From the NCBI GenBank assembly GCA_963729195.1, contig CAVSNF010000004.1, positions 25,958 through 89,957 on the forward strand: a stretch of 64,000 bases of DNA, in the 5' to 3' direction. The stretch comes from an uncultured Actinomycetes bacterium. Lineage in GTDB: Bacteria > Actinomycetota > Thermoleophilia > Gaiellales > JAICJC01. The position numbers and the translations under genes were made by a program. The notes under the pieces are model-generated. The model had not been told where the DNA came from. It did not search any database and worked only from the letters and a program-made list of their open reading frames with translations. Below, in pieces: positions 3,145-26,357 of the stretch; the stretch's first letter is position 1; every line of letters begins with the position of its first letter.

Positions 3145-3175
3145 GTGAATAACGGTGCCTGGCACCGTTATTCAC
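3145..3175. repeat. Palindromic element copy 1: GTGAATAACGGTGCC-T-GGCACCGTTATTCAC (perfect 15-1-15)
   Basis: Read directly. Begins the base after the permease TAG stop (3142-3144). Same sequence recurs at 8 other positions. Confidence 0.95.
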
Positions 3176-3214
3176 CTCGGAGTACGACAGGCGGCCTCAA
3201 TATGATCCGCGAGC

Positions 3215-4231: not shown

Positions 4232-4244
4232 CGCGAGCCGACCG

Positions 4245-6675
4245 TTACAGGTAGTTGTGCTGGGTGAGCCAGCGCATGGCGAAGAATCCCCACAGCGGCG
4301 GCAGATAGAACGTGCACACGCGGTAGATCAGCGCCGTTGCCAGCGCCGCCTCCTCCGACATGCCCGCGCCGGTCAGCCCCACCGTGAGCCCAAACTCGGT
4401 CACGCCGATGCCGCCGGGCACCGGGATGAAGCTCGCAAACAGTGACACGCTGAGGTTGATCACCAGCAGGTCGGCGAGCGAGATGTCGGCTCCGAGTCCG
4501 CGCGCGATGCATCCCAGCGCGATCGCAAACAGCACCTCGGTGGCGAGGTTGCCGCCCATCAGCATCGCCAGCTTGTGCGAGCCGCGCAGCGACGAGAGGG
4601 TCGTTCGCACCTGCGGCCACCACTTGTGCACGCGGCTCGTGATCTGCCGCCGCAGTCGGGGCACCAGGGTGAATACGAGGATGTTGATGACCGCCAGCGC
4701 GACCAGGATGAACAGCAGCTTTTTGGCGCCTTCGGTGGGGATGTTGAAGTCGACCGACACGTCGGATTGCGAGAAGATCAGCAGCAGCACCAGCAGAATC
4801 GCCTGCAGCACGTTGCCGGCGAAGGAGTCGATCGCGCCGGAGGTGACGGCTGAGGCCGGCGGCACGCCCAGCCGCTGGAAGAAGCGGATGTTCACGGCCA
4901 TGCGGGCGAAGTTGGACGGCAACGCCAGGTTCATGTAGCTGGTCGCCAGCTGCATCGCGTACACCGGCCCGAACGGGAGCTCGGCGGCCACCGAGCCCAT
5001 GGTCGAAAGCGATTGGGTCAGGCGCGGGGTCTGGGCGATCACAAAGCCCAGCGCGATCCACGCCCAGGTGGCATCCTGCAGGCTCTCGCGCAGCTGATCC
5101 ACGTCGACCCCGCTGACCGCCCCGATCACGGTGGTGGTGGCAAGCACCAACAGCGCCAGCTGGATCATCGACCCCCACGTCACTCGCCGCAGCTTGGCCA
5201 GCTGCGGCGGCTCGGCCCCCGCCAACTCGGTCGCGTCCTGCCGCAGCTTGTTGAGATCGACCTCCGCAGTCTTCAGCTGACGGCGCAGCGTCGTCCCGAT
5301 GGCGGCGGCCTGGAGATAGGGCAGCAGAGTGGTGATGCCGTCGGCACCGAGCGACTGGTGGGCTGCCTGCAACGCCCGCTCGGGGGTGGTCAGAGCGGCT
5401 GTGGTCGCGAGCAGGCGGGCATGGTCGGTCGCGATCTGCTCCTCCGAAGGGCGCCACGCTGGCCGCCTCGAAGTCGATCAGCCCGACCACGCCGTCGCGC
5501 ACGACCACGGTGCGGGGGCCGATGCGAACGTGAGCGATGCTCGCCCGGCCGAGCATGCTCACCGTCTGCCAGCACTCGCGCAGCAGTCCGTCGTCCAGCT
5601 CCTCGGCAGACAGATCACCGATGGGGCGACCGTTGCCGCGCAGTACCAGCAGCGCATCGTCATAGCCCGACGACCCCGCCGTCACCACCTGGCGGGTGGG
5701 CACGCCGGCGTTCTCGGCCAGCAGCGTGACGAAGGCCTCGTGCTCCACCGCCTGGGAACGGCTCGCCCGCAACCCGGGGCCAGAATCGCGGTACCACAGG
5801 GTGCGCCACAACTTCTCGACCAACTGGTTGTCGTAGGCGTCGCGGCCGTACACCTTGACCACCAGCGGCATGCCGTCGGGATCACGCCCACGGGCCACGA
5901 ACGCTCCGGTGTCGCCGCGATCGACCCGCTCCAGGTCGCTCGCCGGGACGCCCAGCTGCTTGAGCCCGTCCGACACCTCGTCCAGCTCGGGGTAGCCGGC
6001 CGACGTGCCGAACGCGAGCCGGATCGCGGTGGCAGCGATGACCGCAATCAGCAGTGCCGCCACGGTGCCGCCGGGGTTGACGTTGTCGGCGAAGAACGCA
6101 GACAACGCCCCGAGCAAAAACAGCCAGCGGGTCAGCCGCTGCAGCGGGCGAGTCAGGTGAGGCGAGATCGCGAGCACCACCACCGCGCTTTGCACCACCC
6201 GCACCGCCGGCAGGTTCTTGCCGCTGAACTCGCCACCGATGACCGCGCTCAGCTCCGGCCAGCTGCCGGATGCGATCCGCGAGACGACGAACGCGAGCAC
6301 CACCGCCAGTGCCAGCGAGGCCAGCGCCTGGCCGAGCACGATCCGCCTGCGACGGGCCAGCGCGGTGATCACGAGGATCACCGCCCACAGCGTCAGCAGG
6401 TCGAAGAAGAACGCCCACACCGGATCGAGGAACGACGGTGCGCTACTGAGAAACGTGGCCAGCGGGGTGGACGCGTCGCCTACCGGGAACGCGATCACGA
6501 TCGCCGCCAGAGCGATCACCGACGGCGCCAGCAGCAGCACGTCGGATGCCCGGCGGGACCGTGGCTGTCCCGGCGACGAGGAGTACACGCGGATTCCGTG
6601 CCGGAATACTCCAGGGGTTACCAGAACACCGCGCGGTGCGCGTGCGGGGTCGGCAGAGCCGGCCTGGTCGGTCAT
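4245..6675 (-). CDS. Fusion membrane protein: N-terminal TM region + protein-kinase-like domain + C-terminal UPF0104 (flippase-like) domain; apparent frameshift near 5455
   Basis: ORF 4090..6675 N-terminal 400 aa (TM helices, then ...PLVVKVYGRDAYDNQLVEKLW...GLIDFEAAS) joins ORF 4245..5372 (UPF0104-like TM domain). The alternative frame at the junction reads ...SEEQIATDHARLLATT... without a stop. Confidence 0.65.
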
Positions 6676-6774
6676 GAGGTGGAGTATGCAGACCGGTCAA
6701 GACGGCGCCCCGAATGCCGAACGCCCCCGGACGCTGGTGCGGCCGGGGGCGTTCGACGGGGAAACGGCGGCGAT

Positions 6775-6945
6775 TTAAGAGAGGAAGCCGATGACCGTCT
6801 GGATGGTGTTTTGAATCGAGCCGGTGAGCAGAAGCAGAGTGGCCAGCACAGCGAGCGTGATGACCGTCATCAGCACTGCGTATTCCGCAGTCGTCTGACC
6901 TGACTCCCGACCCGACCCAGCAACGGTGTGCGTTACCTGCTGCAT
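6775..6945 (-). CDS. flp: Flp/Fap family type IVb pilin (56 aa; below the ORF-track length cutoff)
   Basis: Hand translation: MQQVTHTVAGSGRESGQTTAEYAVLMTVITLAVLATLLLLTGSIQNTIQTVIGFLS*. Contains the Flp prepilin G/xxxxEY motif followed by a hydrophobic helix. GGAG lies about 11 nt upstream of the ATG. Confidence 0.7.
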   Translation of the reverse strand: MQQVTHTVAGSGRESGQTTAEYAVLMTVITLAVLATLLLLTGSIQNTIQTVIGFLS

Positions 6946-7036
6946 GATGAAAGAACTCCTACCGGATTGGTGTACTTCGAACGTACGCCAAAATCGCAGC
7001 TCCGCAAGACCCGACGGGCGAAATGCTTGTCCCCGG

Positions 7037-7475
7037 TTACGGCGCCGGCGTGAGGCCGTGGCGCACCATCACCGCTGCCATGGCGGCGGGATCCGGCGGG
7101 CCGCCCGCTGCCCGCACCAGGTCGGCCAGCTCGCGGAAGTAGTCCGGGCCCGAGAATCCCGGGGGTCACGATCGCCAGTGCAGTTGCGTCGGAGTCGTGC
7201 GTGTTCTCGAAGTGGTGCACAGCTCCACGGGGGATGCACAGCACCTCACCTTGGGCGACGTCGGTGACGGTTCCCTCGACCGTCCAGGTGAGCACGCCCT
7301 CGAGCCCGTAGATGGTCTCCTCGTAGCCGTCGTGGCTGTGTGCGATCGGCACCCGTGCGCCGGCGGGCACGTCGAACTCGAATACCGCCACCGATTCCGC
7401 GGAGGCCGCGCCCTCGAGCAGGAATCGAATCGACAGCTGACCCAGATTGATCTCTTCGTGTGTTCCGGTGCTCAT
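7037..7475 (-). CDS. Cupin domain protein; apparent +1 frameshift near 7150
   Basis: ORF 6933..7475 N-terminus (…PIAHSHDGYEETIYGLEGVL…IPRGAVHHFEN…) is cupin-like. After ...AIVTPGILGP the shifted frame reads DYFRELADLVRAAGGPPDPAAMAAVMVRHGLTPAP* (stop 7037-7039). Confidence 0.7.
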
Positions 7476-7496
7476 GGCGTCCCCTTCGTCCAGATG

Positions 7497-7550
7497 GTAA
7501 AGTCACTTGACTGTACATGACCGAAGACACTTCGTCAAGTCATTTTACTG
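7497..7550. promoter_or_regulatory. Candidate MarR operator: imperfect inverted repeat GTAAAGTCACTTGAC ... GTCAAGTCATTTTAC
   Basis: 13/15 complementary arms at 7497-7511 and 7536-7550. They lie in the divergent cupin/MarR intergenic region and overlap the annotated MarR start. Confidence 0.3.
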
Positions 7551-7993
7551 AATCTGCGATCTCGAGCGAGCCCTTCGGCCCGCCGCTGATCGGCGCGCTG
7601 CTGCGGATACCGCTCGATGCCGTGCGACGACGGATGCTGGAGCGACTGCACGAGCACGGGTTCGACGACCTCGACCCGGCCCACCTGACCGTCCTGCAGT
7701 ACCCCGGCCCCCAGGGCATGCGACCGTCCGACCTGGCGGTGCAGCTGCGCATCAGCAAGCAGGCACTCAACTACCTGCTGGGACAGCTCGAGAGCGGCGG
7801 ATACCTCGAGCGCCGACCCGACCCCGACGATCTGCGCTCCAAGCGGATCGTGCTCACCAAACGCGGCACCAAGGTCGCCCACGTGATTCGCGAGGCGGTG
7901 GCCGAGATGGAAGCGACCTGGTCGAAGCAGCTCGGCCGGGAGCGCTTCGAGCGCCTGCGCGGGCTACTGCTCGAGCTCAACCAGCTCGTGTAG
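7517..7993 (+). CDS. MarR family transcriptional regulator
   Basis: Intact 158-aa ORF with a winged-helix region (...PSDLAVQLRISKQALNYLLGQLESGGYLERRPDPDDLRSKRIVLTKRG...). Divergent from the cupin gene. Confidence 0.85.
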   Translation: MTEDTSSSHFTESAISSEPFGPPLIGALLRIPLDAVRRRMLERLHEHGFDDLDPAHLTVLQYPGPQGMRPSDLAVQLRISKQALNYLLGQLESGGYLERRPDPDDLRSKRIVLTKRGTKVAHVIREAVAEMEATWSKQLGRERFERLRGLLLELNQLV

Positions 7994-8015
7994 CGGCATC
8001 GCATGGGACGGCAAG

Positions 8016-8088
8016 TGGGCGCAACAGGGCTCGAACCTGTGACCTTCCGCGCGTGAAGCGGACGCTCTCCCAGCTGAGCTATGCGCCC
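8016..8088 (-). tRNA. tRNA-Val (anticodon CAC)
   Basis: Reverse complement GGGCGCATAGCTCAGCTGGGAGAGCGTCCGCTTCACGCGCGGAAGGTCACAGGTTCGAGCCCTGTTGCGCCCA folds as a 73-nt cloverleaf. Anticodon loop is TTCACGC. CCA is not encoded. Confidence 0.93.
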
Positions 8089-8145
8089 TGGGGTGCGCAC
8101 AGGATATCGCGACGGCCACCCCCGGGCGGAGGCACGAGCATTTGA

Positions 8146-9648
8146 TCATGCACCGCTCTCCGGAAGGACGCGACTCGGGAGGACGAGCCGCCGACCGGGT
8201 TGGTCACCGTCCCCAGGATCAAGCAGCGCATTGGTGCGCGTGAGCAGGTCGATTGCTGTCTCCATCGTTGACCAATCCATCTCTGCCACAAACAGCTGGG
8301 CGTATTCGAGGACGCGCACGAATGGTTGCGGGTTCTGGTTTCGGCTGAGTGCTCGGAGCGCATCGAGGTAGTTGTCCCGATACCCGGTCGGGATAATCAC
8401 TCGAGCCTGGTCGGCCGCCGCCAACTCCGCGTTCATCATCACCCGGGCGATCCGGCCGTTGCCGTCGTCAAACGGGTGGACCTCGGTCACGACGAACATC
8501 ATCACGGCCGCTCGCGCGAACGGGTCTGTGAGAGGCGCCACGCGCTCAAACCCCTCGCGCAGGGTTCCCTCCACCATCGCCGGGGCCACAAACGCTGTCC
8601 CACCGGCCCGATTCGGGAGTTCCTTGAACTCTCCGGGGTGAGCTTCAGGGCGCCCACCCATCAGCGTTGCGTGTCGCTCGCGCAGCAGCTCGACAAACTC
8701 CTCGTACGAGGACGGCGTACGCCGCATCTCGATGGGATCCGCAACGATCTCGTAGGTGCCTGTGATGTCGTGGGCATCAGCCGGCCGATTTGGGGGGATC
8801 ACACCGTCGAGGGCGATATGCGCGGCCTCCTCGATCGTAAACTCGGTTCCTTCGATGAAATTCGAGAAGTACGCCTCGAAGAAGGAGAGCAGGTGGGACG
8901 TGGCGGCGTCGATGTCGAGCGGTCGGGCGGTTGGAGAGAGCCCTGAGACATGGTGCGTCAGCAGTTCGAACAGCGCGATCCGCTCAGGGTCGTACGGGGC
9001 ACCAGCTTGGCGGCTACGAAGCACCGATGTCCGGGCGCCGATCCGGCGCGTCCCAAGCGCGGCGCCGATGAGCGGGTCAAGCACCTCCAACTCGCGCTCC
9101 AACCCAAGTTGTGGGGCGATCTCTCGCGCCTGCTCACGGTAGGCGTGTAGCCGATCCTCCCCCTGCGTTCGCACGATCCGGTCGAGCCAGAGTTCAAGCT
9201 CCTCGCGGTTGAGCGTGCGTGCAAGCCCCTTGGTCGCCCGGGAGGGCCGCAGGTTCTCCAAGAGCGCTCGAGGTGTCGCGCTCATCCACGCGGCGTCAGC
9301 AAGCTGGATGTCCGTTGGGTGGTGGCCGTGCCCACGCCTGGGGCGGACCGTCACCCCGGCAAGATTGAGATCGCGCGAGCGGGTCGGGTGCTCCACGAAG
9401 AGTTGTCCGCGCTCTGGCACGCCGCCCAAGTACGCGGACCGATCCGAGACGACCGCGTCGGGTATCACCCGTCCGACAATCCTGTGCAGGTTGCGCCGCA
9501 CCACCCGTTCCGGCTGCTCCGCGACGCGGTTCGTGTAGACCCCTGGCGCAAGGCGCATCAGCTCACCCCGGGCAGCCAGACGCGACACGGCGTTGTACTG
9601 GCCGACGGAGAAGACCAACTCGTCGTTATCACGCAGAATCTCAGCCAT
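8146..9648 (-). CDS. Fic-domain protein (probable AMPylase) with AbiEi-like N-terminal domain
   Basis: Intact 500-aa ORF. Fic core motif HPFDDGNGRIAR. Upstream SNFIEG matches the (S/T)xxxE(G/N) auto-inhibitory helix. N-terminus ...LAARGELMRLAPGVYTN... resembles AbiEi antitoxin wHTH domains. Confidence 0.85.
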   Translation of the reverse strand: MAEILRDNDELVFSVGQYNAVSRLAARGELMRLAPGVYTNRVAEQPERVVRRNLHRIVGRVIPDAVVSDRSAYLGGVPERGQLFVEHPTRSRDLNLAGVTVRPRRGHGHHPTDIQLADAAWMSATPRALLENLRPSRATKGLARTLNREELELWLDRIVRTQGEDRLHAYREQAREIAPQLGLERELEVLDPLIGAALGTRRIGARTSVLRSRQAGAPYDPERIALFELLTHHVSGLSPTARPLDIDAATSHLLSFFEAYFSNFIEGTEFTIEEAAHIALDGVIPPNRPADAHDITGTYEIVADPIEMRRTPSSYEEFVELLRERHATLMGGRPEAHPGEFKELPNRAGGTAFVAPAMVEGTLREGFERVAPLTDPFARAAVMMFVVTEVHPFDDGNGRIARVMMNAELAAADQARVIIPTGYRDNYLDALRALSRNQNPQPFVRVLEYAQLFVAEMDWSTMETAIDLLTRTNALLDPGDGDQPGRRLVLPSRVLPESGA

Positions 9649-9820
9649 GCTGAGAGATTATGCCATATAAGACGGGGTTGCGGAGATATTTTGTGGTTTA
9701 GTGAGCCTCAGTCCGTCCGTCAGAGGCTTCCGCTGCGCCGAGAGCACGTGTCAACGGGAGGGCGGCTAACAGTTGAGCCGCCGCGGTCGATCGGTTGGGT
9801 CGCATGGGGGACTCAGCCGG

Positions 9821-11780
9821 ATGACGACACGCAGGAATTTGCTGCTCGGCGCCTTGGGTGGCGTGGCGGCCAACGCCTCGTCGACTCCGGTGCTGGACGC
9901 CGCGGTCGCGGCGGCGAAGGTGGCGCCGTTTCTGACGGTCGACTTCACCCGCCGGCGCGACGACGATCACTGGTCGGGCGCGTCGGCGCGCTGGTTCACG
10001 CGGTTTGAGAAGCGGGTGCATATCGCCGCTGGACGCGGCCGGATCGTGCTGCCCGCCCCGCTGGCGTCGGCCGCGGACTCCCAGACGGTGCCGGTGTTCC
10101 TGCTGGATCACGACGGATCCACGCCGGTGCAGCGGATCGAGTTCACGATCGAGACACCGCAGGCGCGCCCGGGACTGATCATCGGTGCCACCAATCTCGA
10201 GTCGTACCTGGGCGTGACCGTCGAGGACACGTCGCTGGTGCTGTCGCGGTTTGAGCGCACCCGCCGGGTGGTGCTCCACCGCGCGGACGTACCGCCGCTC
10301 GCAGAGGGGCACGTACACGCACTCGAGGTGCGAGTGGAGCAGGACCGCATCCTTGCACGGGTGGGCCGAGCCGGCTCGCTGCCGGGCACGTATCAGCTCG
10401 ACATTCGAATCCGGGTCTCCCAGGGGATGCCCGGAGTGTTGATGCTGGCCGAGCCGCCGATGGGCGCGAGCGAGCTGGCGCTTCTGCGCTACAAGCTGGG
10501 CGGCCCTCGCGGGTCGGCCACACCCGTCCGCGAGACGTACCTGCTCTCCGGGACGCCGCGGCCCGACGGTGGATGTCCGGGTCGGCACCGAGCGGGCGAC
10601 CTCGGTGGTGGTGGAATGGTCGCGCGATCCAGGATTTCTGACCGGCGTCGAGCACGCCGCCGCGGTCACCACCGCCGCGCCCACGTTCACGACCAAAACG
10701 ACGCTCGAGGTGCGCTCCGGGGTGTGGTGGCGAGCCGCGCTGACCGATCCCGTCACCGGCGTGAGCAACACCACCGCCATCCAGAGCGTGACGCCCGCCG
10801 ACCTGTCCCGGCCGCTGGTGCTGGGAGCCGCCAGCTGCGCCCAGCTGTGGAACGCCGCCGGCTACCACGGCCTCACCCGGTTCACGCAGGAGGCCGCGCT
10901 GACGCAGCCGGCGATGCTCGTGTATCAGGGCGACTTCGGGTATCCGTCCAACTCCGTGAACAGCTGCCTGCGCCAGCAGCCGGACTTCTACCTCGATCGC
11001 ATCACCCGCTTCCTGCGGTCCCCCGACTTCATCGCCCTGCGCGCCGCGATGCCGGTGGGGTTCACGATGGACGACCACGAGTACGGCCCCCAGAACAACG
11101 CCGATCGCACCACCCTCCACCCATGGACGATTGAACTCTGGAACTCGCTGCACGCCGATCCCAGCGCCACCGGGTACATGGACTGGCGGTTCGGCGACGT
11201 GCACTGCCTGACGCTCGACGGCCGCCGCTACTGCGACCCGGTCAACGCTCCCGAGTCGCCCGCCAAGACCAAGCTCGGCTCCGCCCAGAAGCAGTGGCTG
11301 CGCGGCATCCTCGAGCGCAGCGATGCGCGGCTGTTTGTGATCTTCTCGGCCGACATCTTTGCCTCGCGAGGGGAGGGCCGCCCCCAGGTCGACTGCTGGT
11401 GGTACGGCTGGAAGACGGAGTACGCCGAGCTGATGATGCTGTTCCACGACGTCCAGCTGGAGGGCCGGCGGGTGGTGATCCTCAGCGGCGACGCCCACGG
11501 TCAGCGCATCCACCACCACCCCGACCCGGCCCAGCGCGAGCGCGCCGGCTCGGTGGTCGAGTTCATCTGCGCCGGCCTGCGCGCCCGCTCGTGGTCGATG
11601 GAACATCAGCCCGACCCGACCATCGACCCCAAACGCCGAGTGGAGGGCAAGAGCGGCCTGGGCATGATCACCATCGATCCACCGCAGTCACCGGGGCGCA
11701 CGATCACCCTGCGCAGCATCAACGGCGATGACGGCCCGCTCGACCTGTTCCCACCCCTGAGGCTCTCGTTCACCCCGTGA
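9821..11780 (+). CDS. PhoD-like phosphatase with Tat signal peptide; apparent frameshift near 10565
   Basis: MTTRRNLLLGALGGVAANA (twin-arginine) in ORF 9773..11134 joins ORF 10569..11780, which has metallophosphatase motifs (…FTMDDHEYGPQNN…, …VILSGDAHGQRIHHH…). Confidence 0.8.
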
Positions 11781-11787
11781 GATAACG

Positions 11788-12455
11788 TTGCCGGCCACGG
11801 TGACAATCGAGCGCGAGAAACAGGTGGCCGCCGAGGCGGCAGCAGAGGTCGTCGAGGACGGCATGATCGTCGGGCTGGGCACGGGCTCGACCGTCGCCTA
11901 CCTGCTGCCCGCGCTGGCCCGCCGGCAGCTGCAAGATCACCTGCGTCGCCACCTCTCCGGCAACCGCCCAGATCGCAACCGGACTGGGGATGCAGGTGTT
12001 CCCGTTCGCCGGGCCGGATGCGCCGCGGCGGCTGGATATCGCCATCGACGGCGCCGACCAGGTCGATCCCGACGGCTGGGCGATCAAGGGCGGCGGGGCG
12101 GCCCACACCCGCGAGAAGACCGTCGCCGCCGCCGCCGACCGATTCGTCATCATCGCCTCCTCGGACAAGATGGTCGATCGGCTCGGACCACCCGTGCCAC
12201 TGGAGCTGCTGGCGTTCGGATTGAACGCGACCCTGGCGCGGCTGGGCGCGGTCAAGCTGCGCGACGTGCCGCTCAGTCCCGACGGCGGGGTGATCGCCGA
12301 CTACATCGGCCGCGTTCGACGACCCGGCCCTGCTCGCCGCCGAGCTGTCACAGGCGGTGGGCGTGGTCGATCACGGGCTGTTCCCGCGCGCGATGGTGTC
12401 CGAGGTATTCGTCGGCCGCTGCGATCAGGCCGAGCGGATCGTCGTCAGTCGCTGA
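11788..12455 (+). CDS. rpiA: Ribose-5-phosphate isomerase A; two apparent frameshifts (about 11930 and 12311)
   Basis: Three frame pieces: ...GMIVGLGTGSTVAYLLPALARRQL / KITCVATSPATAQIATGLGMQVFPFAG...DGADQVDPDGWAIKGGGAAHTREK... / AFDDPALLAAELSQAVGVVDHGLFPRAMVSEVFVGR...* (TGA 12453-12455). Confidence 0.82.
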
Positions 12456-13119
12456 CCGCCGCGGCGTCGGCGATGATCAGCGCGTGCTCGGCTTCCACCC
12501 GCCCGCCGGGGATGGAGCGGTCGCCGGCGCGCAGCTTTGCCAGCGCCTCCACCTTGTCGGCGCCGGTCACCAGCCACATCACCTGCGCCGCCCGGTTCAG
12601 CACCGGATAGGTCAGCGTCATCCGCCGCCGGCCCATGTAGGGCTGGGTCACACCCACGTCGCGGTCGGTCACGTCCAGCACCGGATCGCCCGGCACCAGC
12701 GAGGCGGTGTGCCCGTCCGGCCCCAGCCCCAGGTGGATCAGGTCGAACCGCGGCGGCAGGCTCGCGGCATATTCGGCCGCGGCCTGATCGATGTCCTGCT
12801 CGCGCTCGACCGGCATCGCCCGCACGCCGCCATCCGCCTCCGCAGGCAGGCTGTCCATCAGGTGGGTGAGGTTGCGATCGGGATCACCGGCCGGGGCAAC
12901 TCGCTCGTCCACTTGGTAGAAGACGCACTGCGCCCACGGCATCTCCTCGTCGGCCAGCTCGGCGAACATCGCCCAGGGAGTGTGACCGCCGCTGACCGCG
13001 AAGCTGAACCGGCCGTGCTCGGCCACCGCCGCCCGGGCCTTCCCGGCCACGAAGTCGGCAGCCCGGCGGGCCACCGCCGCTGGGTCGGCCTGCGCCTCGA
13101 TCGCCGGCCCGACGCTCAC
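12445..13119 (-). CDS. pgl: 6-phosphogluconolactonase
   Basis: ...FAVSGGHTPWAMFAEL...LIHLGLGPDGHTASLVPGDPVL... GTG start 13119 overlaps the gnd stop (GTGA). The 3' end overlaps rpiA by 11 nt (convergent). Confidence 0.85.
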   Translation of the reverse strand: MSVGPAIEAQADPAAVARRAADFVAGKARAAVAEHGRFSFAVSGGHTPWAMFAELADEEMPWAQCVFYQVDERVAPAGDPDRNLTHLMDSLPAEADGGVRAMPVEREQDIDQAAAEYAASLPPRFDLIHLGLGPDGHTASLVPGDPVLDVTDRDVGVTQPYMGRRRMTLTYPVLNRAAQVMWLVTGADKVEALAKLRAGDRSIPGGRVEAEHALIIADAAAVSD

Positions 13120-14147
13120 GCCGGCTTCTCGTCGTGGCCGCCGAACTGCTTGCGCATCGCCGAAAGCACCTTGTCGGCGAAGTCGTCCGCTCCCCGCGAG
13201 GCAAACCGCGAATAGAGGGCGGTGGTCAGCACCGGCGAGGGTATGCCCTCCTCGATGGCCGCAATCGACGTCCATCGGCCCTCGCCCGAGTCGGACACTC
13301 GGCCGGCGAACTCCGCCAGCGTGGGCGACTCGAACAGAGCCTGGGCGGTGAGATCGAGTAGCCACGACCCGACCACGCTGCCGCGCCGCCACACCTCGGC
13401 CACCTCGGTGGTGTCGATCTCGTACTGGTAGTACTCGGGCCGCTCCAGCGGCGACGTCTCGGCATCCGCCTCACGGGTGCGCTTGCCCACATCGGCGTTC
13501 TTGATGATGTTGAGGCCCTCGGCATAGGCCGCCATCAAGCCGTACTCGATGCCGTTGTGCACCATCTTGACGAAGTGGCCCGCGCCGTTCGGCCCGCAGT
13601 GCAGGAAGCCCTGCTCGGCCTGGGTGGGCTCGCCGGATCGGCCGGGCGTACGCGGCGCGGAGTCGACACCGGGCGCAACCGAGGCGAAGATCGGGGAGAG
13701 CCGCTGGACGACCTCGTCCTCGCCGCCGATCATCAGGCAGTAGCCTCGCTCCCGGCCCCAGACTCCACCGCTGGTGCCGCAGTCGACGTGGTGGATACCC
13801 TTCTCCCTCAGCGCGTTCGCGTGCCGGATGTCGTCGTGGTAGTGGGTGTTGCCGCCGTCGATGATGACGTCGCCCGAGTCCAGGGCATCGGCCAGCATCG
13901 CGATCGTCTTGTCGGTGATGTCGCCCGCAGGCACCATCACCCACACCGCCCGCGGCCGCTCCAGCTTGGCCACGAACTGCTCGACGGTGGTGGCGCCGCC
14001 GGCCCCGTCGGCTTCCAGCGCGGCCACCGCATCGGCGCTCACGTCGTAGCCGACACAGCGATGCCCGTCGGCCATCAACCGGCGCACGATGTTCGATCCC
14101 ATCCGCCCGAGTCCCACCATCCCCAGCTGCATCGGATTGTCCGTCAT
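13116..14147 (-). CDS. gnd: 6-phosphogluconate dehydrogenase (decarboxylating), short GntZ/YqeC-like form
   Basis: Intact 343-aa ORF: MQLGMVGLGRMGSNIVRRL..., ...CGPNGAGHFVKMVHNGIEYGLMAAYAEG... Confidence 0.9.
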   Translation of the reverse strand: MTDNPMQLGMVGLGRMGSNIVRRLMADGHRCVGYDVSADAVAALEADGAGGATTVEQFVAKLERPRAVWVMVPAGDITDKTIAMLADALDSGDVIIDGGNTHYHDDIRHANALREKGIHHVDCGTSGGVWGRERGYCLMIGGEDEVVQRLSPIFASVAPGVDSAPRTPGRSGEPTQAEQGFLHCGPNGAGHFVKMVHNGIEYGLMAAYAEGLNIIKNADVGKRTREADAETSPLERPEYYQYEIDTTEVAEVWRRGSVVGSWLLDLTAQALFESPTLAEFAGRVSDSGEGRWTSIAAIEEGIPSPVLTTALYSRFASRGADDFADKVLSAMRKQFGGHDEKPA

Positions 14148-14196
14148 CTTGAGAGCTCCTGTTCGAGGTAGACACAGACATTAGTAGGATGCAGCG

Positions 14197-15609
14197 GTGC
14201 CGGCAGGGGAGACAGCAAGCGCACCACCCGTAGCCGACGCCCTGGTGGTGTTCGGGATCAGCGGCGACCTCGCGCGCAAGATGACGCTCAAGTCGCTCTA
14301 CCTGCTGGAGCGGCGCGGGATGCTCGACTGCCCGGTGATCGGGGTCGCCCGTGAGCGATGGACGGACGACCAGCTGCGCCAGCACGCGCTGGAAGCCGTC
14401 AAAGCTTCCGGGGTGCCGTTCTCCAAGAAGGTGTTCGAGCGGTTTGCGGCGCGGCTCAGCTACGTCGCCGGCGACTTCTCCCGGGTGACGACCTATCGCA
14501 AGCTGAAGACCAAGCTGCGCGGCGTCTCGAATCCGGTGTTCTACCTCGAGATCCCGCCGTTTCTGTTTGCGGGAGTGGTCGAGCACCTGCACGAAGCCGG
14601 GCTGACCAAGGACGCTCGGGTGGTGGTGGAGAAGCCGTTCGGCCACGACTTCGCGTCGGCCTGCGCCCTCAACGACGACCTGCGCAAGCTGCTCACCGAG
14701 GATCAGCTGTACCGGATCGACCACTTCCTGGGAAAGATGTCGGTCGAGGACATCATGTACCTGCGGTTCGCCAACACCATGCTCGAGCCGATCTGGAACC
14801 GGCAGTTCGTCTCGTCCGTGCAGATCACGATGGCGGAGAGCTTCGGCGTGGACGATCGGGGCAGCTTCTACGAACCGGTCGGGGCGCTGCGCGACGTCGT
14901 CCAGAACCACCTGATGCAGGTGCTGGCGCTGGTGGCCATGGAGCCGCCGGCGGGCATCGGGCACGACGTGATCGCAGATCGCAAGCGCGACGTGTTCCTG
15001 GCCATGCCCAGCGCCGACCCCGGCAAGTACGTGCGCGGCCAGTACGACGGCTACCTCGAGGTCAAGGGGGTGGCTCCCAACTCGACCACCGAGACGTTTG
15101 CGGCGCTGCGGCTCGAGGTCGACAACTGGCGCTGGAACGGCGTGCCCTTCTACATCCGCGCCGGCAAGGCCATGGCCGAGACGGTGACCGAGGTGCGGGT
15201 GGTGTTCCGGCACGCGCCCAAGCTGGCCTTCGCCGGCAGCCGCTGGCGCCACCCCGACCCCAACAACCTGGTGCTGCGGGTCGGCCCCAAACCGGGCGCC
15301 AGCATCTGGCTGCAGAGCAAGCGGCCGTCGTCGCCGGGCCTTCACTCGGTGCACCTGGACATGGACTTCGCCGAAGAGGGCGGCGAGGGGCCGACACCGT
15401 ACGAGCAGCTCCTGCACGGAGCCATGCACGGCGATCGCAGCCACTTCATCCGCGAGGACGCGGTCGAGGAGACATGGCGGATCGTGCAGCCCCTGATCGA
15501 CGAGCCGCCGCCGGTGGACGGCTACAAGCCCGGCTCGTGGGGGCCGGCCTCCGCCGAGAAAATGCTGGCCCACCGCGGTGGCTGGCACGAGCCGTGGCTT
15601 CCCGAATGA
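14197..15609 (+). CDS. zwf: Glucose-6-phosphate 1-dehydrogenase
   Basis: Intact 470-aa ORF: ...[13 protein letters not shown]..., ...YRIDHFLGK..., ...[11 protein letters not shown]... Divergent from gnd-pgl. Confidence 0.93.
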
Positions 15610-20433: not shown

Positions 20434-20666
20434 GCCACGCTCCTTGTCGTCAAGTGCCGGAATCAACGTACCAGCCGCACGTCGGATCAGGGGTGTGGAA
20501 GCGCCGCCCGAACCTGGGGCTAAACTTCTGCGGCAGCGGCAATCAACTCGGGTTAGAGTTACGCACAACGGGTTGGAGTACCTCGTGGGCGAGGGTCGTC
20601 GCAACAGTTGCTCCTAGGGAGGGTCGTAGTTTGAACACGCATCTCCGTGAGTCATTTCGCGACTCG

Positions 20667-20867
20667 ATGAACAACCAGAGCCACCTGATCCTGCCGGTGG
20701 TACTGGCCGCGATCGCGCTGACAGGCATCGGATTTGCGATTGCAGCGCTGGTGGGAACCGGCTCAGAGGCCTCGAGTTCGCCGGCTCCTCAGACAATCAC
20801 GATCCACTCGACCGTAACTGCGGCCGGCACAACGACGTCACCAAGGTATCCACGAAGAAGATGCTAA
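20667..20867 (+). CDS. Hypothetical small membrane-anchored protein (may extend into the GTCAC-rich tract if further frameshifts exist)
   Basis: MNNQSHLILPVVLAAIALTGIGFAIAALVGTGSEASSSPAPQTITIHSTVTAAGTTT... One TM helix followed by a Thr/Val-rich tail. No recognisable family. Confidence 0.3.
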   Translation: MNNQSHLILPVVLAAIALTGIGFAIAALVGTGSEASSSPAPQTITIHSTVTAAGTTTSPRYPRRRC

Positions 20868-20929
20868 GGGCAAGGACGATCACCAGGCACGGGAAGGTCA
20901 TCACGCTGCCCGGCACACTCCGTGAACGT

Positions 20930-21140
20930 TTACAACACCGTCACCACGCCGGGCCGAAACGTCACCAACACCCGCACGACCACGTCACACGCGTGACCGG
21001 TGCTCCGAGAACCGTCACCAGCCGACCTGTAACCGTCACTCTCGCCGGCGCCCGTCACGTGTTACAAGCCCGCCGATTACCGTAACATCACCCCCACGTG
21101 CACCGTGACCGCACACGGTCACCGTCCCAGTCACCTAGCG
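20930..21140. repeat. GTCAC-rich low-complexity tract (at least 9 GTCAC/GTGAC within about 200 bp; CCGTCAC five times)
   Basis: CCGTCAC at about 20938, 20960, 21012, 21032 and 21051, plus further GTCAC/GTGAC copies. Lies between the small ORF and the 3' end of the HAL-like gene. Confidence 0.5.
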
Positions 21141-21165
21141 CAGCGCGCTCACCAGCGGTGTGAGG

Positions 21166-22607
21166 TCAGCTGGCCGGCGGCTCGCCGTCGTGATGCCGCG
21201 GCATGGTCGCGCGCACGAGATCGTACGCAGCTCGAGTCCCGGTGCCGAGATCTCCCACCCGTTCGCGCAGGTCGACCGCCTGCGCCGCGCAGTACATCTC
21301 GGTGGCGGCGATGTACCGGGCAAGCTCGGTCAGCTCGTGCAGCCGGCGGGCCGCCACGGGCGTTGGGATCACGCGATCCTCGATGCCTTCGGCGATCGAG
21401 CTGGTGGGCGACTCGAGCGTCGCCGGCATCGCCAACAGCCGCACCTCGGCGGCCGCGGCGGCGGCGCCGTAGACGACGATCGCAAGACCGTCGCCGCTCG
21501 AGCTGTCGTCGCTGCGAAGCCCGGTGGGAAGTCCGCTGAAGGCCGAGTGCACGAGCTTCTGGGAGCGCTCGCAGGACGCGGTTGCGACGTGCGCCAGCGC
21601 CAATCGCAGGTAGTCCAGCGCGACTCCGTACGGCACCGAGTCGAAGTTCCCGTTCGAGAGCGCCCGCCCGTCGGGAGTGATGCAGGGGTTGTCGTGCGAG
21701 GACACCAGCTCGGCCTCGACCAGCATCCGGGCGTGCCCGAACGCCACCCGCCCGGCGGCATGCGTCTGCGGCACCACGCGCATGGTGAGGGGATCCTGGA
21801 GCTCGCGATGCAGGCCGCCCTTGAGCAGCTTGCCGTTGGCCAGAAGCGCCCGCATCCGCTCGATCGATTGCTCCAGCCCCGGCACCGGCCGTGCCTCGGC
21901 CACCGCCGGATCGAGCGCTTGAACGTTTCCGAGCATTCCCTCGAACGTGAGCGCCGCCGCCTGATCGAAGCTGACCAGCAGGCGGTCGATCGCCGCCAAT
22001 GCCAGCGCGGCAGAGCCCAGCGAGAAGGCGTTGGAGTTGACGAACGCAAGCGCCTCCTTGGCGTCGGGCCGCCACGGTTCGAGGCCCAGCCGGTGGAGCT
22101 CGGCAGCCCACTCCCCGGTGCCCGTGAGCGCCTCGGCGATGTCGGCCAACGGGCCCAGGTCTGACTGTCCCAGCGACCCCACCGTGCGTGCCCGCGGTGC
22201 CAGCCCGGCGTTCAGCGCCGCCACTAGCAGATCGGCCAGCGACTCGCGCACTCCCGAGCGGCCGCGGGCGAACCCGGCCAGCTGCGCCAGCAGGGTGGCC
22301 CGCACGACCGCTCCGCGCACGTTTGCGCCGGTGCCGGTGCGATGTGAGAGCAGCAGCAGCCGGTTGAAGTCGGCCTGCTCATCGGCCGCCACCGAGACGC
22401 GCTTCATCGCACCCACGCCGGTGGTCAGCCCGTACACCTGCGAGCCGTCGGCCAGCAGCCGCTCGGTGGCGGCGCGGCCCGCCGCGATCCGTTCGCGGGC
22501 TGCGGGCCGAGAGCTCCACCGGCCGCTGTTCGAGTGCGACCGCCGCCACCTGCTCGAGCGTGAGCGCTGTCGTCGAGCACCACCGTCTGATCGCCACCGG
22601 TGCTCAA
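21166..22607 (-). CDS. Histidine/aromatic ammonia-lyase family protein lacking the MIO Ala-Ser-Gly triad (ergothionase-like); two apparent frameshifts near the 5' end (about 22500, 22565)
   Basis: Family motifs: VYGLTTGVGAMK, LQDPLTMRVVPQTHAAG, SHDNPCI. The MIO position reads GSLGQSDLGPLA instead of G-S-V-G-A-S-G-D-L-A-P-L-A. TTG start 22607 overlaps the MttB-like stop (TTGA). Confidence 0.8.
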
Positions 22608-24031
22608 TCGCCCAGCTCCTTGCGGCGCACCGTCACGTACTCCTCCAGCTCGGCCTCGAGCGCCGCGTCGATCGGCGGCTTCTCATAGCTCTCGAGCGTG
22701 TCCCGCCAGATCTGCGACGCCCGCGCCGCGGCGTCCAGCCCACCGCGCTTCTGCCACCGCTCGTAGTTGTCGGTGGACGACAGCAGCGGACGATAGAAGC
22801 ACTCTCGGAAGCGCTCCAGGGTGTGCACCGCGCCCAGGAAGTGGCCGCCGTGTCCGACCTCCTGGTGCGCGCCGTAGGCCAGGCTGTCCTCGTCCACCTC
22901 GAGCGGCTGGAACTCGGCCTGGAGCACCCGCAGCATCTCGATGTCGACGATGAACTTCTCGAACGACGCCACCAGCCCCGACTCGAGCCAGCCGGCCGCG
23001 TGGGGCACGTAGTTGGCGCCGGCCATGAACGCCGGCAGCATCGTGTTGAGTCCCTCGTAGGCGGCCTGGGCGTCAACCGTCTGGCTGGAGGTCAGAAAGC
23101 CGCCACCGGCCCGCCAGGGCAGCCCGAACCGGCGCGCGATCTGCCCCGAGCAGAACAGCCCTGTGGCCGACTCGGGGCCACCGAAACCGGGCGACCCGGA
23201 CTGCATGTCGGTGTGCGACAGGAACGATCCCAGGATCACCGGCGCGCCCGGCCTGATCAGTTGGGTCAGCACCAGCCCCGCCAGCGACTCGGCCGTCTGC
23301 TGGACGAGCGCGGCCGGCACCGAGGCCGGAGCCATCGCCCCCATCAGCAGGAACGGCGTGATCACGGTCACCTGCCCGGCGGCGGCATAGATCATCATCG
23401 CGTCGAGCATGCGCGTGTCGTAGCGAAGCGGCGAGTTGACGTTGATCACGCCGTACACCGCGGGGCCGGCTTCCAGGCCGCCCCGCGAGCGCATCACCAT
23501 GTCGGTCACCACCATCGAGTCGCGAGCCGCCTCGGAGGTGATCACCGCTCCCTGATACGTGCGGTCGGTCAGCGTCGTCACCGCCAGCAGCATGTCCAGG
23601 TGACGGGAGTCGAGCGGGATGTCGTTGGGCTCACAGCACAGCCCGCCGGGAGTGTCGAGCTGGTCGAAGCTCTGGCTGAGTTGGCACAGCTCGGTGAAGT
23701 CGGCCAACGTGCCCTCGCGCCGCTCGTCTCCCTTGCGCACGAACGGCGGCCCCTGGGTGGGGGCGAAGAACATGTGCCTGCCGCCGACGTGAACATTGCG
23801 AGCCGGGTTGCGCGCGGCCAGCTCGAACTCGCTGGGCGCCGCCGCCACCTGCTCGAGCACGAACTCGGGGTCGAGCTTGACCACCGAGTCCTCGACCCGC
23901 TGCCCGGCCCGGCGGAAATGCTCGAGCGCCTCCTCGTGCAGAAACTCCACTCCGATCTCGGAGATCAGCCGCCGCCAGCCCCGTTCGAGCACCTCCATCG
24001 CCTCGGGCGACAAGATGTCGTAGTGGGGCAT
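22604..24031 (-). CDS. Trimethylamine methyltransferase (MttB) superfamily protein, non-pyrrolysine type
   Basis: Intact from ATG 24031 (MPHYDILSPEAMEVLERGWRRLISEIGVEF...) for 475 aa with no in-frame TAG. MttB-family-like throughout (...INVNSPLRYD..., ...GGPESATGLFCSGQIARRFGLPWRAGGG...). Confidence 0.86.
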   Translation of the reverse strand: MPHYDILSPEAMEVLERGWRRLISEIGVEFLHEEALEHFRRAGQRVEDSVVKLDPEFVLEQVAAAPSEFELAARNPARNVHVGGRHMFFAPTQGPPFVRKGDERREGTLADFTELCQLSQSFDQLDTPGGLCCEPNDIPLDSRHLDMLLAVTTLTDRTYQGAVITSEAARDSMVVTDMVMRSRGGLEAGPAVYGVINVNSPLRYDTRMLDAMMIYAAAGQVTVITPFLLMGAMAPASVPAALVQQTAESLAGLVLTQLIRPGAPVILGSFLSHTDMQSGSPGFGGPESATGLFCSGQIARRFGLPWRAGGGFLTSSQTVDAQAAYEGLNTMLPAFMAGANYVPHAAGWLESGLVASFEKFIVDIEMLRVLQAEFQPLEVDEDSLAYGAHQEVGHGGHFLGAVHTLERFRECFYRPLLSSTDNYERWQKRGGLDAAARASQIWRDTLESYEKPPIDAALEAELEEYVTVRRKELGD

Positions 24032-24101
24032 CTGATTTTCGAGCACGGACCGAAGGTTGGCATGCCGTCGTCCCCCTGGCAACTTGTTACCGTGCACGGC
24101 G

Positions 24102-24554
24102 ATGGACGAGCCGGTCGAACTGTGGACTGACGGCGCCTGTTCGGGGAATCCCGGGCCGGGCGGCTGGGCGGCGATCCTGCGCAAGGGCGATCGCGTCAAG
24201 GAGCTCTCGGGAGGCGAGCCGCAGACCACCAACAACCGCATGGAGCTGCAGTCGGTGATCGAAGGGCTGCGCGCGCTGAACCGGCCGGTGGACGTCGTCG
24301 TCCACCTCGACTCGAGCTATGTCGAGTCGGCGTTCACCAAGGGCTGGATCGATACGTGGCGGGCAAACGGCTGGCGCACGGCGGGCAAGCAGCCGGTCAA
24401 GAACCAGGATCTGTGGGAGCAGCTGATCGCCGAGGTGGCCAAGCACCAGGTCAGCTGGACGCTGGTGAAAGGCCATGACGGCGTCGAGCTGAACGAGCGG
24501 GCCGACGAGCTGGCTGTGGCCGCCCGCGATCTGGCGGCTGAGAGCGACGCATGA
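24102..24554 (+). CDS. rnhA: Ribonuclease HI
   Basis: [26 protein letters not shown]...[15 protein letters not shown]...[17 protein letters not shown]. Stop overlaps the ATG of the next gene (ATGA). Confidence 0.9.
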
Positions 24555-25530
24555 GCACCGAGGTGGCCGTCGAGGCAGACAACCTGGTGAAGACCTACAA
24601 GCCCGATGTGCGCGCCCTCAACGGGCTCAGCTTCAGCGTCGAGGCGGGCACCGTATTCGGCCTCTTGGGGCCGAACGGTGCGGGCAAGTCGACCGCGGTC
24701 AAGGTGCTGACCACGCTGGCCCGCCCGGATTCCGGCGGCGCCCGCGTGGCCGGGCTGGACGTCTTGTCCGACGCCGCCAAGGTGCGCCACCTGATCGGAG
24801 TGGTGGCCCAGCGCTCGGGGGTCGACCGGGAGCTGACGGGGCGCGAGAACCTCACGCTGCAGGCCCAGATATTTGGCATGGGCAAGGCCGCCGCGCGGCC
24901 GCGGATCGATGAGCTGCTGGGCCAGTTCGGGTTGGCGGACGCGGCCGACCGTGTCAGCCGCGGCTACTCGGGCGGCATGCAGCGGCGGCTCGACATCGCG
25001 ACCGCGCTTGGTGCACCGGCCGCAGGTGCTGTTCCTGGACGAGCCCACCACCGGGCTCGATCCCGAGGTCCGCGCCGGCATGTGGGAGGAGATCGCCCGG
25101 CTTGCCAAGGATGAGGGCATCACGGTGCTGCTGACCACGCACTACCTCGAGGAGGCCGACAATCTGGCCGCCAACCTCGCGATCGTCGACCGCGGCACGG
25201 TGGTTGCCTCGGGCACGCCGGAGCAGCTCAAGGGAGAGCTGCACGGCGACGCCATCCACGCCGAGCTGGCCGAGTCGGCCACGAGGAGGCGGTTGCCAAG
25301 GCGCTGGTGCCGGTGGCAGGCGTGCAGGAAGTCAAGAGCGACGGCCGCCGTGTGCGCGCACGAGTCGCCCACGGGGCAACCGCGGTGCCGGCGGTGCTGG
25401 CGGCGCTGGAGGCGGGCGGGATGACGGTGGCGTCGGTGACGGTCTCGCGGCCGTCGCTGGACGACGTCTATCTGCGTCATACCGGCCGCGCATACGCCGA
25501 GGCCGACGCCGAGGGGAGGCCGCCGCATGA
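24551..25530 (+). CDS. ABC transporter ATP-binding protein (DrrA/ABC-2 exporter type); at least 2 apparent frameshifts (about 25010, 25279); 3' end uncertain
   Basis: [12 protein letters not shown] (Walker A), [15 protein letters not shown] / [18 protein letters not shown] (signature and Walker B in different frames), then [19 protein letters not shown]... in a third frame. Confidence 0.8.
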
Positions 25531-26301
25531 CCGGCCTGCGCCACTCCCTGATCATGACCCACCGCGGATTGCTGTCGCTGCTGCGCCAGCCCTGGTGGAT
25601 CGGAGTCAGCCTGATGCAGCCGGTGGTGTGGCTGGTGCTCTACGGCGCGCTGTTCAAGCGGGTGGTCGATATCCCCGGCTTCCACTCCACCTCCTACATC
25701 CAGTTCCTGGCGCCGGGCGTGGTGATGATGACCGCCCTGTTCGGCGCCGGCTGGGGCGGCATGAGCATGATCTCCGACATCGACCGCGGGCGTGGTCGAC
25801 CGGTTCCTGATGTCGCCGGTGCACCGCGGGTCGATCATCGCCGGGCGGGTGCTCCAGAGCGTCTTTTCGATCGTGATCCAGTCGATCATCATCGTGGTGT
25901 TGGCGCTGATTCTGGGCGGGCGCTTCCCCAACGGCGTGTTCGGGATCGTGGTCTTGATCGTGGTGGCGTCACTGCTGGGTGCGTCCTTCGCCGCGATCTC
26001 GAACGGCATCGCACTGCTGGCGCGGCGGGAGGAGACGCTGATCGCCGTTATGAACTTCATCCTGCTGCCGTTGACGTTCCTGTCGGCCGCGTTCATGCAG
26101 CAGGATCTGATGCCCAGCTGGATGCAGTCGGTGGCAACGTTCAACCCGGTCAACTGGGCCGTCCAGGCCGGGCGGGCGGCGGTGCTTCCGCACACGGACT
26201 GGTCAATGGTGGCCCAGCGGACCGGGTTGCTGGTGGTGCTATTGGTGATCTGCAGCGCGTTTGCGACCAGGGCGTTTCGGTCGTATCAGCGCTCGGTCTA
26301 G
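25527..26301 (+). CDS. ABC-2 type transporter permease; apparent frameshift near 25790
   Basis: ORF 25527.. ([40 protein letters not shown]...ISDIDRG) joins ORF 25792..26301 (VVDRFLMSPVHRGSIIAGRVL...). Confidence 0.8.
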
Positions 26302-26357
26302 TGATGTGACCGGTGACGTTGGTGGCGTCGCCGGCAAACGTTGCCGGTCACATCACT
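26300..26357. terminator. Bidirectional terminator-like hairpin between convergent genes (14-bp perfect stem AGTGATGTGACCGG / CCGGTCACATCACT, 30-nt loop)
   Basis: Read directly. The left arm overlaps the permease TAG (26299-26301). The right arm ends 2 nt before the carbonic anhydrase stop (26360-26362). No U-tract. Confidence 0.6.

Follow-up and report, generated by a model that had tools for sequence, protein, structure and literature searches.

A putative betaine-catabolic operon that couples an MttB-family methyltransferase to a lyase of the histidine ammonia-lyase fold without the MIO triad in an uncultured Gaiellales bacterium

Several lyases of the histidine ammonia-lyase (HAL) fold have been described that lack the 4-methylideneimidazole-5-one (MIO) electrophile. 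Besides the ergothionase of T. denticola (Protein Data Bank (PDB) code 6S7J), a histidine betaine trimethylammonia-lyase (HBTL; Swoo_3913 of Shewanella woodyi) and an N-pi-methyl-histidine-betaine trimethylammonia-lyase (SO_3299 of S. oneidensis) were reported in 2025-2026, and the published MIO-less lyases strictly need a trimethylammonium group. The MttB superfamily contains methyltransferases without pyrrolysine, among them MtgB of D. hafniense (2QNE/9YCE) as well as MtpB, MtcB, MtyB, and MthB, which share the PF06253 TIM barrel. In aerobic bacteria, MtgB uses an unlinked corrinoid protein and methyltransferase that are common to several MttB paralogues (PMC12478193). Here we describe a locus in a 64,000-nucleotide stretch of contig CAVSNF010000004.1 from an uncultured Gaiellales bacterium (referred to as the window), in which a gene for a non-pyrrolysine MttB-superfamily methyltransferase (hereafter MttB) runs directly into a gene for an MIO-less HAL-fold lyase. 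Both kinds of enzyme are known, but their operonic coupling, the large actinobacterial lyase clade, and a three-gene variant of the operon are without description in the literature searched, which yielded no paper linking MttB with ergothioneine, hercynine, or an ammonia-lyase. From the sequences we propose, with moderate confidence, that the pair forms a coupled operon by which an amino-acid betaine trimethylated at its alpha-nitrogen is broken down, hercynine (histidine betaine) or a compound close to it being the likeliest substrate.

The minus strand carries both genes. The MttB gene occupies positions 22604 to 24031, with an ATG at 24031 and a TGA at 22606-22604, and encodes an intact protein of 475 residues. 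The lyase gene (21135 to 22607) begins with a TTG and ends with a TAG at 21137-21135, and it encodes 489 residues when three 1-nucleotide insertions, described below, are deleted. Its longest unbroken frame (21166 to 22437) codes for 423 residues that include the catalytic core and the GSLGQSDLGPLA loop. The lyase start (22607-22605) lies over the stop codon of MttB in the sequence TTGA (22604 to 22607), a junction typical of translational coupling that had already been pointed out in a sequence-only reading of this DNA. A perfect Shine-Dalgarno sequence, AAGGAG, can be read 8 nt 5' of the TTG (22616 to 22621). The same 4-nt MttB/lyase-side overlap is present in the related loci L001, L003, L008, L019, and L026.

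The 423-residue frame of the lyase matches PF00221 with an E-value of 6e-104 over profile positions 43-465 of 466. It contains the motifs VYGLTTGVG, LQDPLTMRVVPQTHAAG, and SHDNPCI, as the sequence-only reading had listed them, together with GSLGQSDLGPLA. The last of these occupies the MIO position, where HAL has GSVGASGDLAPLA. When the two are aligned, the lyase loop reads GSLGQS-DLGPLA, so that Ala-Ser-Gly is absent and the loop is one residue shorter, and alignments with HAL and with ergothionase bear out what had been claimed on both counts. The replacement of Ala-Ser-Gly by Gln-Ser with a one-residue deletion is found in every family member tabulated. Conservation of the loop was checked in nine homologues, in a 19-sequence alignment, and in 70-plus tabulated lyases, and the consensus is G-S-[LIV]-G-Q-[SA]-D-L. 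The T. denticola ergothionase has a loop of the same length, SSIGEGDITTLS.

A structural model of the lyase was obtained with AlphaFold2 (pLDDT, the predicted local distance difference test score, of 88.8). Its best Foldseek match is ergothionase (6s7j; E-value of 1.7e-28, TM score of 0.91), in keeping with the ergothionase-like structure that had been suggested, and HAL follows close behind with TM scores of 0.91-0.92. By sequence, the best match in the PDB is the Thermoplasma HAL 7tqr (2e-52). Compared with the HutH enzymes of P. putida (1B8F) and T. acidophilum (7TQR), the lyase has the same fold and keeps all substrate-contact residues except Tyr280. HutH differs in having Ala-Ser-Gly and the MIO as well as a hut operon. 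Canonical HutH was ruled out, as the triad and the hut operon are missing and the score of the 423-residue frame against the HutH equivalog TIGR01225 (275.6 bits) is below the cutoff of 539. In a neighbor-joining tree, a rough distance tree without bootstrap, the two MIO-bearing HALs stand apart from every MIO-less sequence, that of ergothionase among them. In the same tree, the clade of the window lyase is sister to a Streptomyces/Solirubrobacterales clade, and ergothionase branches outside the large actinobacterial clade. A search of NCBIfam gave no equivalog-level name for the lyase or for MttB. Together, these data support the assignment of the lyase as an MIO-less, ergothionase-like enzyme of the HAL fold.

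The active site was aligned with those of P. putida HAL, Thermoplasma HAL, and T. denticola ergothionase. The lyase retains Y53, H83, N195, Q277, R283, N313, F329, and E414, and it shares the catalytic Tyr, His, Gln, Arg, Asn, and Glu with ergothionase. Tyr280 of HAL is replaced by a leucine in both. The two enzymes differ at Lys384 of ergothionase (T. denticola numbering), a thiolate-binding residue that is essential for activity; the window lyase has a tyrosine there (IVVYGAAA), the same as 7tqr. This position is an asparagine in the histidine-betaine lyase and a glutamine in the N-pi-methyl-histidine-betaine lyase. As the thiolate-binding lysine is replaced, the tyrosine argues against ergothioneine and for a betaine substrate that would be free of sulfur.

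A true ergothionase, producing thiourocanate and trimethylamine from ergothioneine, would explain the missing MIO and the best structural match to 6s7j. Actinobacteria are, moreover, producers of ergothioneine. However, the identity to 6s7j is only 30%, the essential Lys384 is a tyrosine, no genes for a thiourocanate hydratase, a desulfhydrase, or an ErtD-type protein are found nearby, and Streptomyces clusters hold a separate MIO-less paralogue that does bear the lysine. We regard ergothionase activity as very unlikely. Of the substrates proposed in the sequence-only reading, a histidine-betaine-like compound (hercynine or ergothioneine) or another betaine, the betaine role stands as the best reading and ergothioneine itself is improbable. 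That reading had also held ergothionases to be the sole characterised MIO-less members of the fold, which is outdated in view of the two trimethylammonia-lyases reported since.

The residue pattern of HBTL recurs in the window lyase, which is MIO-less, keeps H83, E414, Q277, R283, and N313, and has a neutral residue (Tyr) at the lysine position. The comparison with Swoo_3913 and SO_3299, made by their published description, extends to the imidazole and carboxylate ligands and to a predicted product of the urocanate type. These two enzymes are periplasmic and serve anaerobic respiration, coupled to flavocytochrome or urocanate reductases, whereas the window lyase is coupled to MttB in an aerobic-type soil actinomycete. 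Its N terminus, MSTGGDQTVVLDD, shows no obvious signal peptide as judged by eye, no predictor having been run, and no PF00890 reductase adjoins the gene, which has MttB, RNase H, and HbpS-like genes as its neighbors. The published HBTL has a Tyr-His spacing of Y77-H117 as opposed to Y58-H88 in the window lyase, and this difference suggests that the latter belongs to another clade. The tyrosine at the Lys384 position, together with a sister clade located beside urocanase (see below), favors a hercynine-type trimethylammonia-lyase over an ergothionase as the probable activity.

The MttB protein matches PF06253 over its full length with an E-value of 9e-173. Its open reading frame is unbroken and hence contains no in-frame TAG, the position of pyrrolysine in the pyrrolysine-type MttB is occupied by a leucine, and the score against the pyrrolysine-type equivalog TIGR02369 is 242 bits where the cutoff is 525; the non-pyrrolysine assignment made from the sequence is therefore upheld. 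The closest solved structures are 4yyc (1e-110), an uncharacterised protein deposited as 'Putative trimethylamine methyltransferase', and the glycine betaine methyltransferase MtgB (9yce/2qne, 1e-106), and the match to the pyrrolysine-type MttB 7xcl is only 2e-31. In MtgB, glycine betaine is bound by Y97, R312, H348, and F356 (PMC13080624). The corresponding residues are Gln, Arg, His, and Gly in the window MttB and in every lyase-linked MttB. Thus, the carboxylate ligands R312 and H348 are kept, whereas the two cage residues are not. The glycine at the F356 position also occurs in 4yyc and in the MttB paralogues. The equivalent of R312, which pairs with the substrate's acidic moiety, is kept in all characterised betaine-type members, and the true trimethylamine enzyme has a tyrosine in its place. 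From the retained arginine and the leucine at the pyrrolysine position, MttB is predicted to be a betaine-type and not a trimethylamine-type enzyme, and its pocket is probably altered and roomier. A lyase has not been reported as the partner of any characterised MttB member.

These residues also bear on a scheme of trimethylamine scavenging, in which the lyase would release trimethylamine and the MttB homologue would demethylate it. Trimethylamine is formally the product of one enzyme type and the substrate of the other. However, MttB has no pyrrolysine, carries the carboxylate-binding arginine where the true trimethylamine enzyme has a tyrosine, and is far nearer to MtgB (1e-106) than to the pyrrolysine-type enzyme (2e-31). 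A role as trimethylamine methyltransferase was rejected on these grounds, and we consider the scavenging scheme extremely unlikely.

A gene for a corrinoid protein was not found in the window, which agrees with the sequence-only reading, nor within 8 kb of any lyase locus. When the corrinoid protein, pterin-binding methyltransferase, RACo, and DUF1638 proteins of locus L082 were used as tblastn queries, neither the window nor any lyase locus gave a match. The missing gene need not be seen as an anomaly, because aerobes use unlinked, shared modules and because related contigs encode such a module beside an MttB paralogue. In these contigs, a 69%-identical paralogue of MttB adjoins genes for IclR, a B12-binding corrinoid protein, Pterin_bind, RACo, and DUF1638, and a second paralogue in the 67-69% identity tier adjoins cobalamin biosynthesis genes. 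The situation resembles that of MtgBCD in the aerobe Ruegeria pomeroyi, where corrinoid and folate partners lie elsewhere and are shared among several MttB paralogues (PMC12478193); related Gaiellales contigs likewise encode several MttB paralogues, with the B12, pterin, and RACo genes in a cluster apart. The differences are that Ruegeria belongs to the Proteobacteria and not the Actinomycetota, and that the substrate of the window enzyme is probably not glycine betaine.

The cluster in the Gaiellales-like loci L082/L083 (267-7440) is complete in itself. Next to the MttB paralogue it has the full corrinoid methyltransferase set, including an unknown 292-residue protein, and the IclR/B12-binding/Pterin_bind/RACo/DUF1638 genes are followed by an aminotransferase and a 2-hydroxyacid dehydrogenase. 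This gene content points to a second, different MttB pathway in aerobic-type Actinomycetota.

A genome scan seeded with the lyase alignment recovered 80 loci from Gaiellales, Thermoleophilia, Solirubrobacterales, Acidimicrobiales, Streptomyces, and Chloroflexota. Their genes were called computationally and then relabelled by BLAST against references. In about 25 Gaiellales-like loci, where the lyase is at least 69% identical to that of the window, the order is MttB>lyase or MttB>enolase>lyase. MttB is directly 5' of the lyase in the window and in L001-L004, L019, L024, and L026, and in most of the others a single gene for a 366-residue enolase-superfamily protein stands between the two. All of the MttB/(enolase)/lyase junctions in these loci are 4-nt overlaps. 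Look-ups centred on MttB gave the same picture from the other side: in the 77-82% identity tier a lyase is downstream in 3 of 3 cases, and for the paralogues of the 67-69% tier in 0 of 2. The pairing, whose recurrence had been one of the tests set by the sequence-only reading, is thus a regular feature of this group. Chance adjacency was rejected, as the two genes are kept together in two gene orders, the second being enolase>lyase>MttB in a distant lyase clade (~46% identity). Neighbors in the latter clade are Fae, an FAD oxidase, a DDAH-like protein, an MFS transporter, and IclR, as well as amidohydrolases resembling formimidoylglutamate deiminase (HutF) and hydantoinase.

Other MIO-less clades have different surroundings. 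The sister clade of the Streptomyces type adjoins a canonical urocanase (1x87, 9e-181), GntR, a 3-hydroxyacyl-CoA-dehydrogenase-like gene, and a cysteine dioxygenase (CDO)-like cupin, and it contains a second MIO-less paralogue that carries the ergothionase lysine. The PDB matches of the cupin are labelled only 'cysteine dioxygenase'. We take this neighbor to resemble an ergothioneine dioxygenase; the literature search found no paper on an ergothioneine dioxygenase or desulfinase. In the Streptomyces spp. loci L028-L033 (about 1200-10100), one of the two MIO-less lyases has a lysine at the thiolate site and an arginine for H83, and the other has an asparagine. These loci also contain the canonical urocanase, GntR, the 3HCDH-like gene, an ornithine cyclodeaminase, and the CDO-like cupin, and judging from this content the region looks like a combined ergothioneine/hercynine catabolic island. 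In L075 (6986-7972), a fused CDO_I-rhodanese protein is encoded directly upstream of an MIO-less lyase, a possible sign of sulfur chemistry acting on a betaine of thio-histidine.

A further MIO-less clade has a MetE-like PF01717 gene upstream and, in some loci, a PF02574 homocysteine S-methyltransferase downstream. It is represented by L036-L076, which come from many MFD metagenome-assembled genomes (MAGs). Around 6000-15000 in these loci, an MFS transporter, an ATP-grasp protein, and the MetE-like protein are encoded upstream of the lyase, and a GFO/IDH/MocA oxidoreductase, a nucleoside hydrolase, and an Opp-type ABC transporter are encoded downstream; a variant has GNAT and the PF02574 enzyme. 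MIO-less lyases are thus repeatedly linked to enzymes of methyl transfer.

The conserved order MttB>(enolase)>lyase with its 4-nt overlaps could be taken to mirror the order of the reactions. In such a scheme, the protonated N,N-dimethyl amino acid left after MttB has stripped one methyl group would be the substrate from which the lyase eliminates dimethylamine. This would account for the coupling of a demethylase with a lyase, and the association of other lyase clades with other types of methyltransferase, MetE-like PF01717 and PF02574, fits as well. It conflicts, however, with the strict need for trimethylammonium in all characterised MIO-less lyases and with the order enolase>lyase>MttB in the second clade, and we doubt that the enzymes work in this sequence.

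The enolase-superfamily gene has no counterpart in the window and its nearest relatives, and in some near relatives (L087, L026, L003) an ABC transporter is inserted after the lyase instead. Its closest solved relative is 4mgg (3e-79), followed by the group of HpbD, a proline-betaine racemase/hydroxyproline-betaine epimerase (2pmq, 4e8g/4izg; ~1e-54). The best NCBIfam model is NF043002, cis-3-hydroxy-L-proline dehydratase, at 333 bits with a cutoff of 500. In contrast to HpbD and cis-3-hydroxy-L-proline dehydratase, the enolase homologue has MttB and the lyase as partners, not Rieske demethylases. The gene could be a lead to chemistry at the C-alpha of N-substituted amino acids, and it keeps alive a reading in terms of proline betaine. 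In that reading MttB would act like MtpB on proline or hydroxyproline betaine, the enolase homologue would racemise or dehydrate, and the lyase would open the ring or take a derivative. In addition to the enolase matches, it can draw on the existence of MttB members that demethylate proline betaine (PMC12478193). The lyase, on the other hand, keeps H83 and a HAL-like pocket, its sister clades are accompanied by urocanase or by HutF-like and hydantoinase-like amidohydrolases, the window and its nearest relatives are without the enolase gene, and the NF043002 score is below the cutoff. A proline-type betaine is therefore an unlikely substrate.

The lyase gene of the window is interrupted three times. 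The sequence-only reading had noted two frameshifts at the 5' end, and both are real: one is a 1-nt insertion, GACGAC[A]GCG, at 22568, and the other a 1-nt insertion at 22503 within GGCCCGCAGCC. A third, which had been missed, is a 1-nt insertion at 21171 that leads to a premature TGA (21168-21166), so that the true stop is the TAG at 21137-21135 and not the TGA ending at 21166. When the 5' end is translated in three frames, the first 57 residues of the lyase can all be recovered, scattered over those frames. The three insertions are private to the window, being absent from L001, L002, L024, and L026. In L001, a related metagenome contig, the lyase (P0001) is intact with 489 residues and is 96% identical to that of the window. 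It follows an intact 475-residue MttB, which it overlaps by 4 nt as in the window, and the surrounding genes, RNase H, ABC transporter, carbonic anhydrase, DnaX, YbaB, and RecR, match those of the window.

The window is an assembly distinct from L001, L002, and L024 (93-97% identity at the nucleotide level), and most of the related loci stem from long-read MAG projects. In a five-way DNA alignment of the lyase gene, L002 and L024 each have other private single-base insertions, and L001 and L026 are clean. In the 8.9 kb that four related assemblies have in common, 18 non-triplet indels (~2 per kb) are private to the window, and the other assemblies have 9 to 14. Examples between 17400 and 26300 are found at 25790, 25282, 25009, 19952, 19900, 19187, and 17631, and private indels of the window also break an ABC-transporter ATPase (about 24551-25424), a DUF2090 gene, and PGI. 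After deletion of the three extra bases, comparison with L001 gives ratios of nonsynonymous to synonymous substitution (dN/dS) of 0.105 (lyase) and 0.029 (MttB), which indicate purifying selection. As the three frameshifts are private, match the indel noise of the whole window, are absent from intact relatives, and occur in a gene with a low dN/dS, they are most likely sequencing or assembly errors.

Alternatively, the lyase might be a true pseudogene in this genome, with MttB alone functional and the pairing a relic, a view that draws on the presence of three frameshifts in the 1.47-kb lyase gene and none in the 1.43 kb of MttB. The private nature of the insertions, the different indels that L002 and L024 bear in the same gene, the 18 private indels that hit other genes too in a comparison of long-read MAG assemblies, and the dN/dS of 0.105 make this quite unlikely.

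A betaine-catabolic role is the best-supported reading of the pair. In the mechanism that we propose, the lyase would work as a cofactor-free enzyme on the fold of HAL and phenylalanine ammonia-lyase, with the tyrosine of VYGLTTG taking the beta-proton and trimethylamine leaving to give urocanate or a close analogue. The MIO electrophile would be unneeded, because a quaternary ammonium is already a good leaving group. In a corrinoid-dependent reaction, MttB would demethylate a quaternary amine that bears a carboxylate, probably the betaine used by the lyase or one closely related to it, and the methyl group would pass to a corrinoid protein whose gene lies elsewhere in the genome and then to tetrahydrofolate. 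The families of both proteins, the lost MIO triad, the kept catalytic and carboxylate-binding residues, the coupling of the genes, their repeated co-occurrence, and the corrinoid systems beside a paralogue in related contigs are seen directly; the substrate, the order of the reactions, and the use of one shared molecule by both enzymes are inferred.

Several observations weigh against this proposal. The copy of the lyase gene in the window is frameshifted three times. The residues that the lyase keeps are mostly family-wide, and only H83 favors an imidazole or phenol side chain. In MttB, Y97 and F356 of the aromatic cage of MtgB have given way to Gln and Gly. Hut genes, a betaine transporter, and genes for the oxidation of trimethylamine were not found within the 64-kb window. 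The likeness of the enolase homologue to cis-3-hydroxy-L-proline dehydratase and HpbD points to proline-type betaines. The action of a demethylase and a trimethylamine-releasing lyase on one substrate lacks an evident rationale.

The surroundings of the operon were also inspected. Between the MttB gene and the divergent RNase H gene is a short intergenic stretch (24032 to 24101), the presumed promoter region, where no match to the sigma-70 consensus turned up. Scans of 20600-24300 for promoter and terminator consensus sequences were empty, a result that is uninformative in an actinobacterium with a window GC content of 68%. On the other side, a 530-nt, indel-rich noncoding spacer (20605-21134) separates the lyase gene from the HbpS-like gene. 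It is full of CGTCAC/GGTGACSGT repeats; 3 of the 13 copies of GGTGACSGT in the window, where 1.8 are expected, are located here. The same site is occupied by the ABC transporter cassette in L026, L003, and L087, and the spacer could represent the scar of a deletion or have a regulatory function. A 58-nt palindromic element (26300-26357) with 21-nt arms that are 90% complementary lies between two convergent genes. It contains GTGACCGG, which is shared with the spacer repeats, and it is not present in the otherwise collinear L001. The element may be an insertion resembling a repetitive extragenic palindromic (REP) sequence or a miniature inverted-repeat transposable element (MITE), or a terminator hairpin. 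The remaining window encodes housekeeping functions: pentose-phosphate and tricarboxylic acid cycle enzymes, DnaX, RecR, Ku, LigD, and aspartate kinase. Unlinked to the operon are genes on the minus strand for a 500-residue Fic-domain protein (8146-9648) and for an arginase-family protein, possibly an agmatinase or formiminoglutamase (62467-63417).

Little is known about the fate in soil of hercynine and ergothioneine, two betaines that abound in microbes and fungi, and the known routes for their degradation release trimethylamine, a climate- and health-relevant gas. The operon is conserved in uncultured Gaiellales, Thermoleophilia, and other Actinomycetota. Its combination of a betaine demethylase with an MIO-less lyase suggests that soil actinobacteria recover methyl groups via B12/folate chemistry while dismantling betaines. 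The present annotations, 'histidine ammonia-lyase' and 'trimethylamine methyltransferase', are both probably wrong, and the two proteins are concrete candidates for enzymology. If the proposed role is true, it would widen the range of substrates used by MttB-superfamily enzymes of aerobes, and a large actinobacterial clade would join the MIO-less HAL-fold lyases, for which there are three characterised activities so far. A bolder idea, which we rate as improbable, is an undescribed aerobic route in which the B12-dependent MttB-type demethylase and the cofactor-free lyase would act in sequence on one aromatic or imidazole betaine, the lyase having evolved to expel dimethylamine, with assistance in many relatives from the homologue of enolase-superfamily racemases/dehydratases. 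If that were true, a dimethylamine-expelling lyase would be a new specificity, and MttB would be the first enzyme of its family to feed an elimination step.

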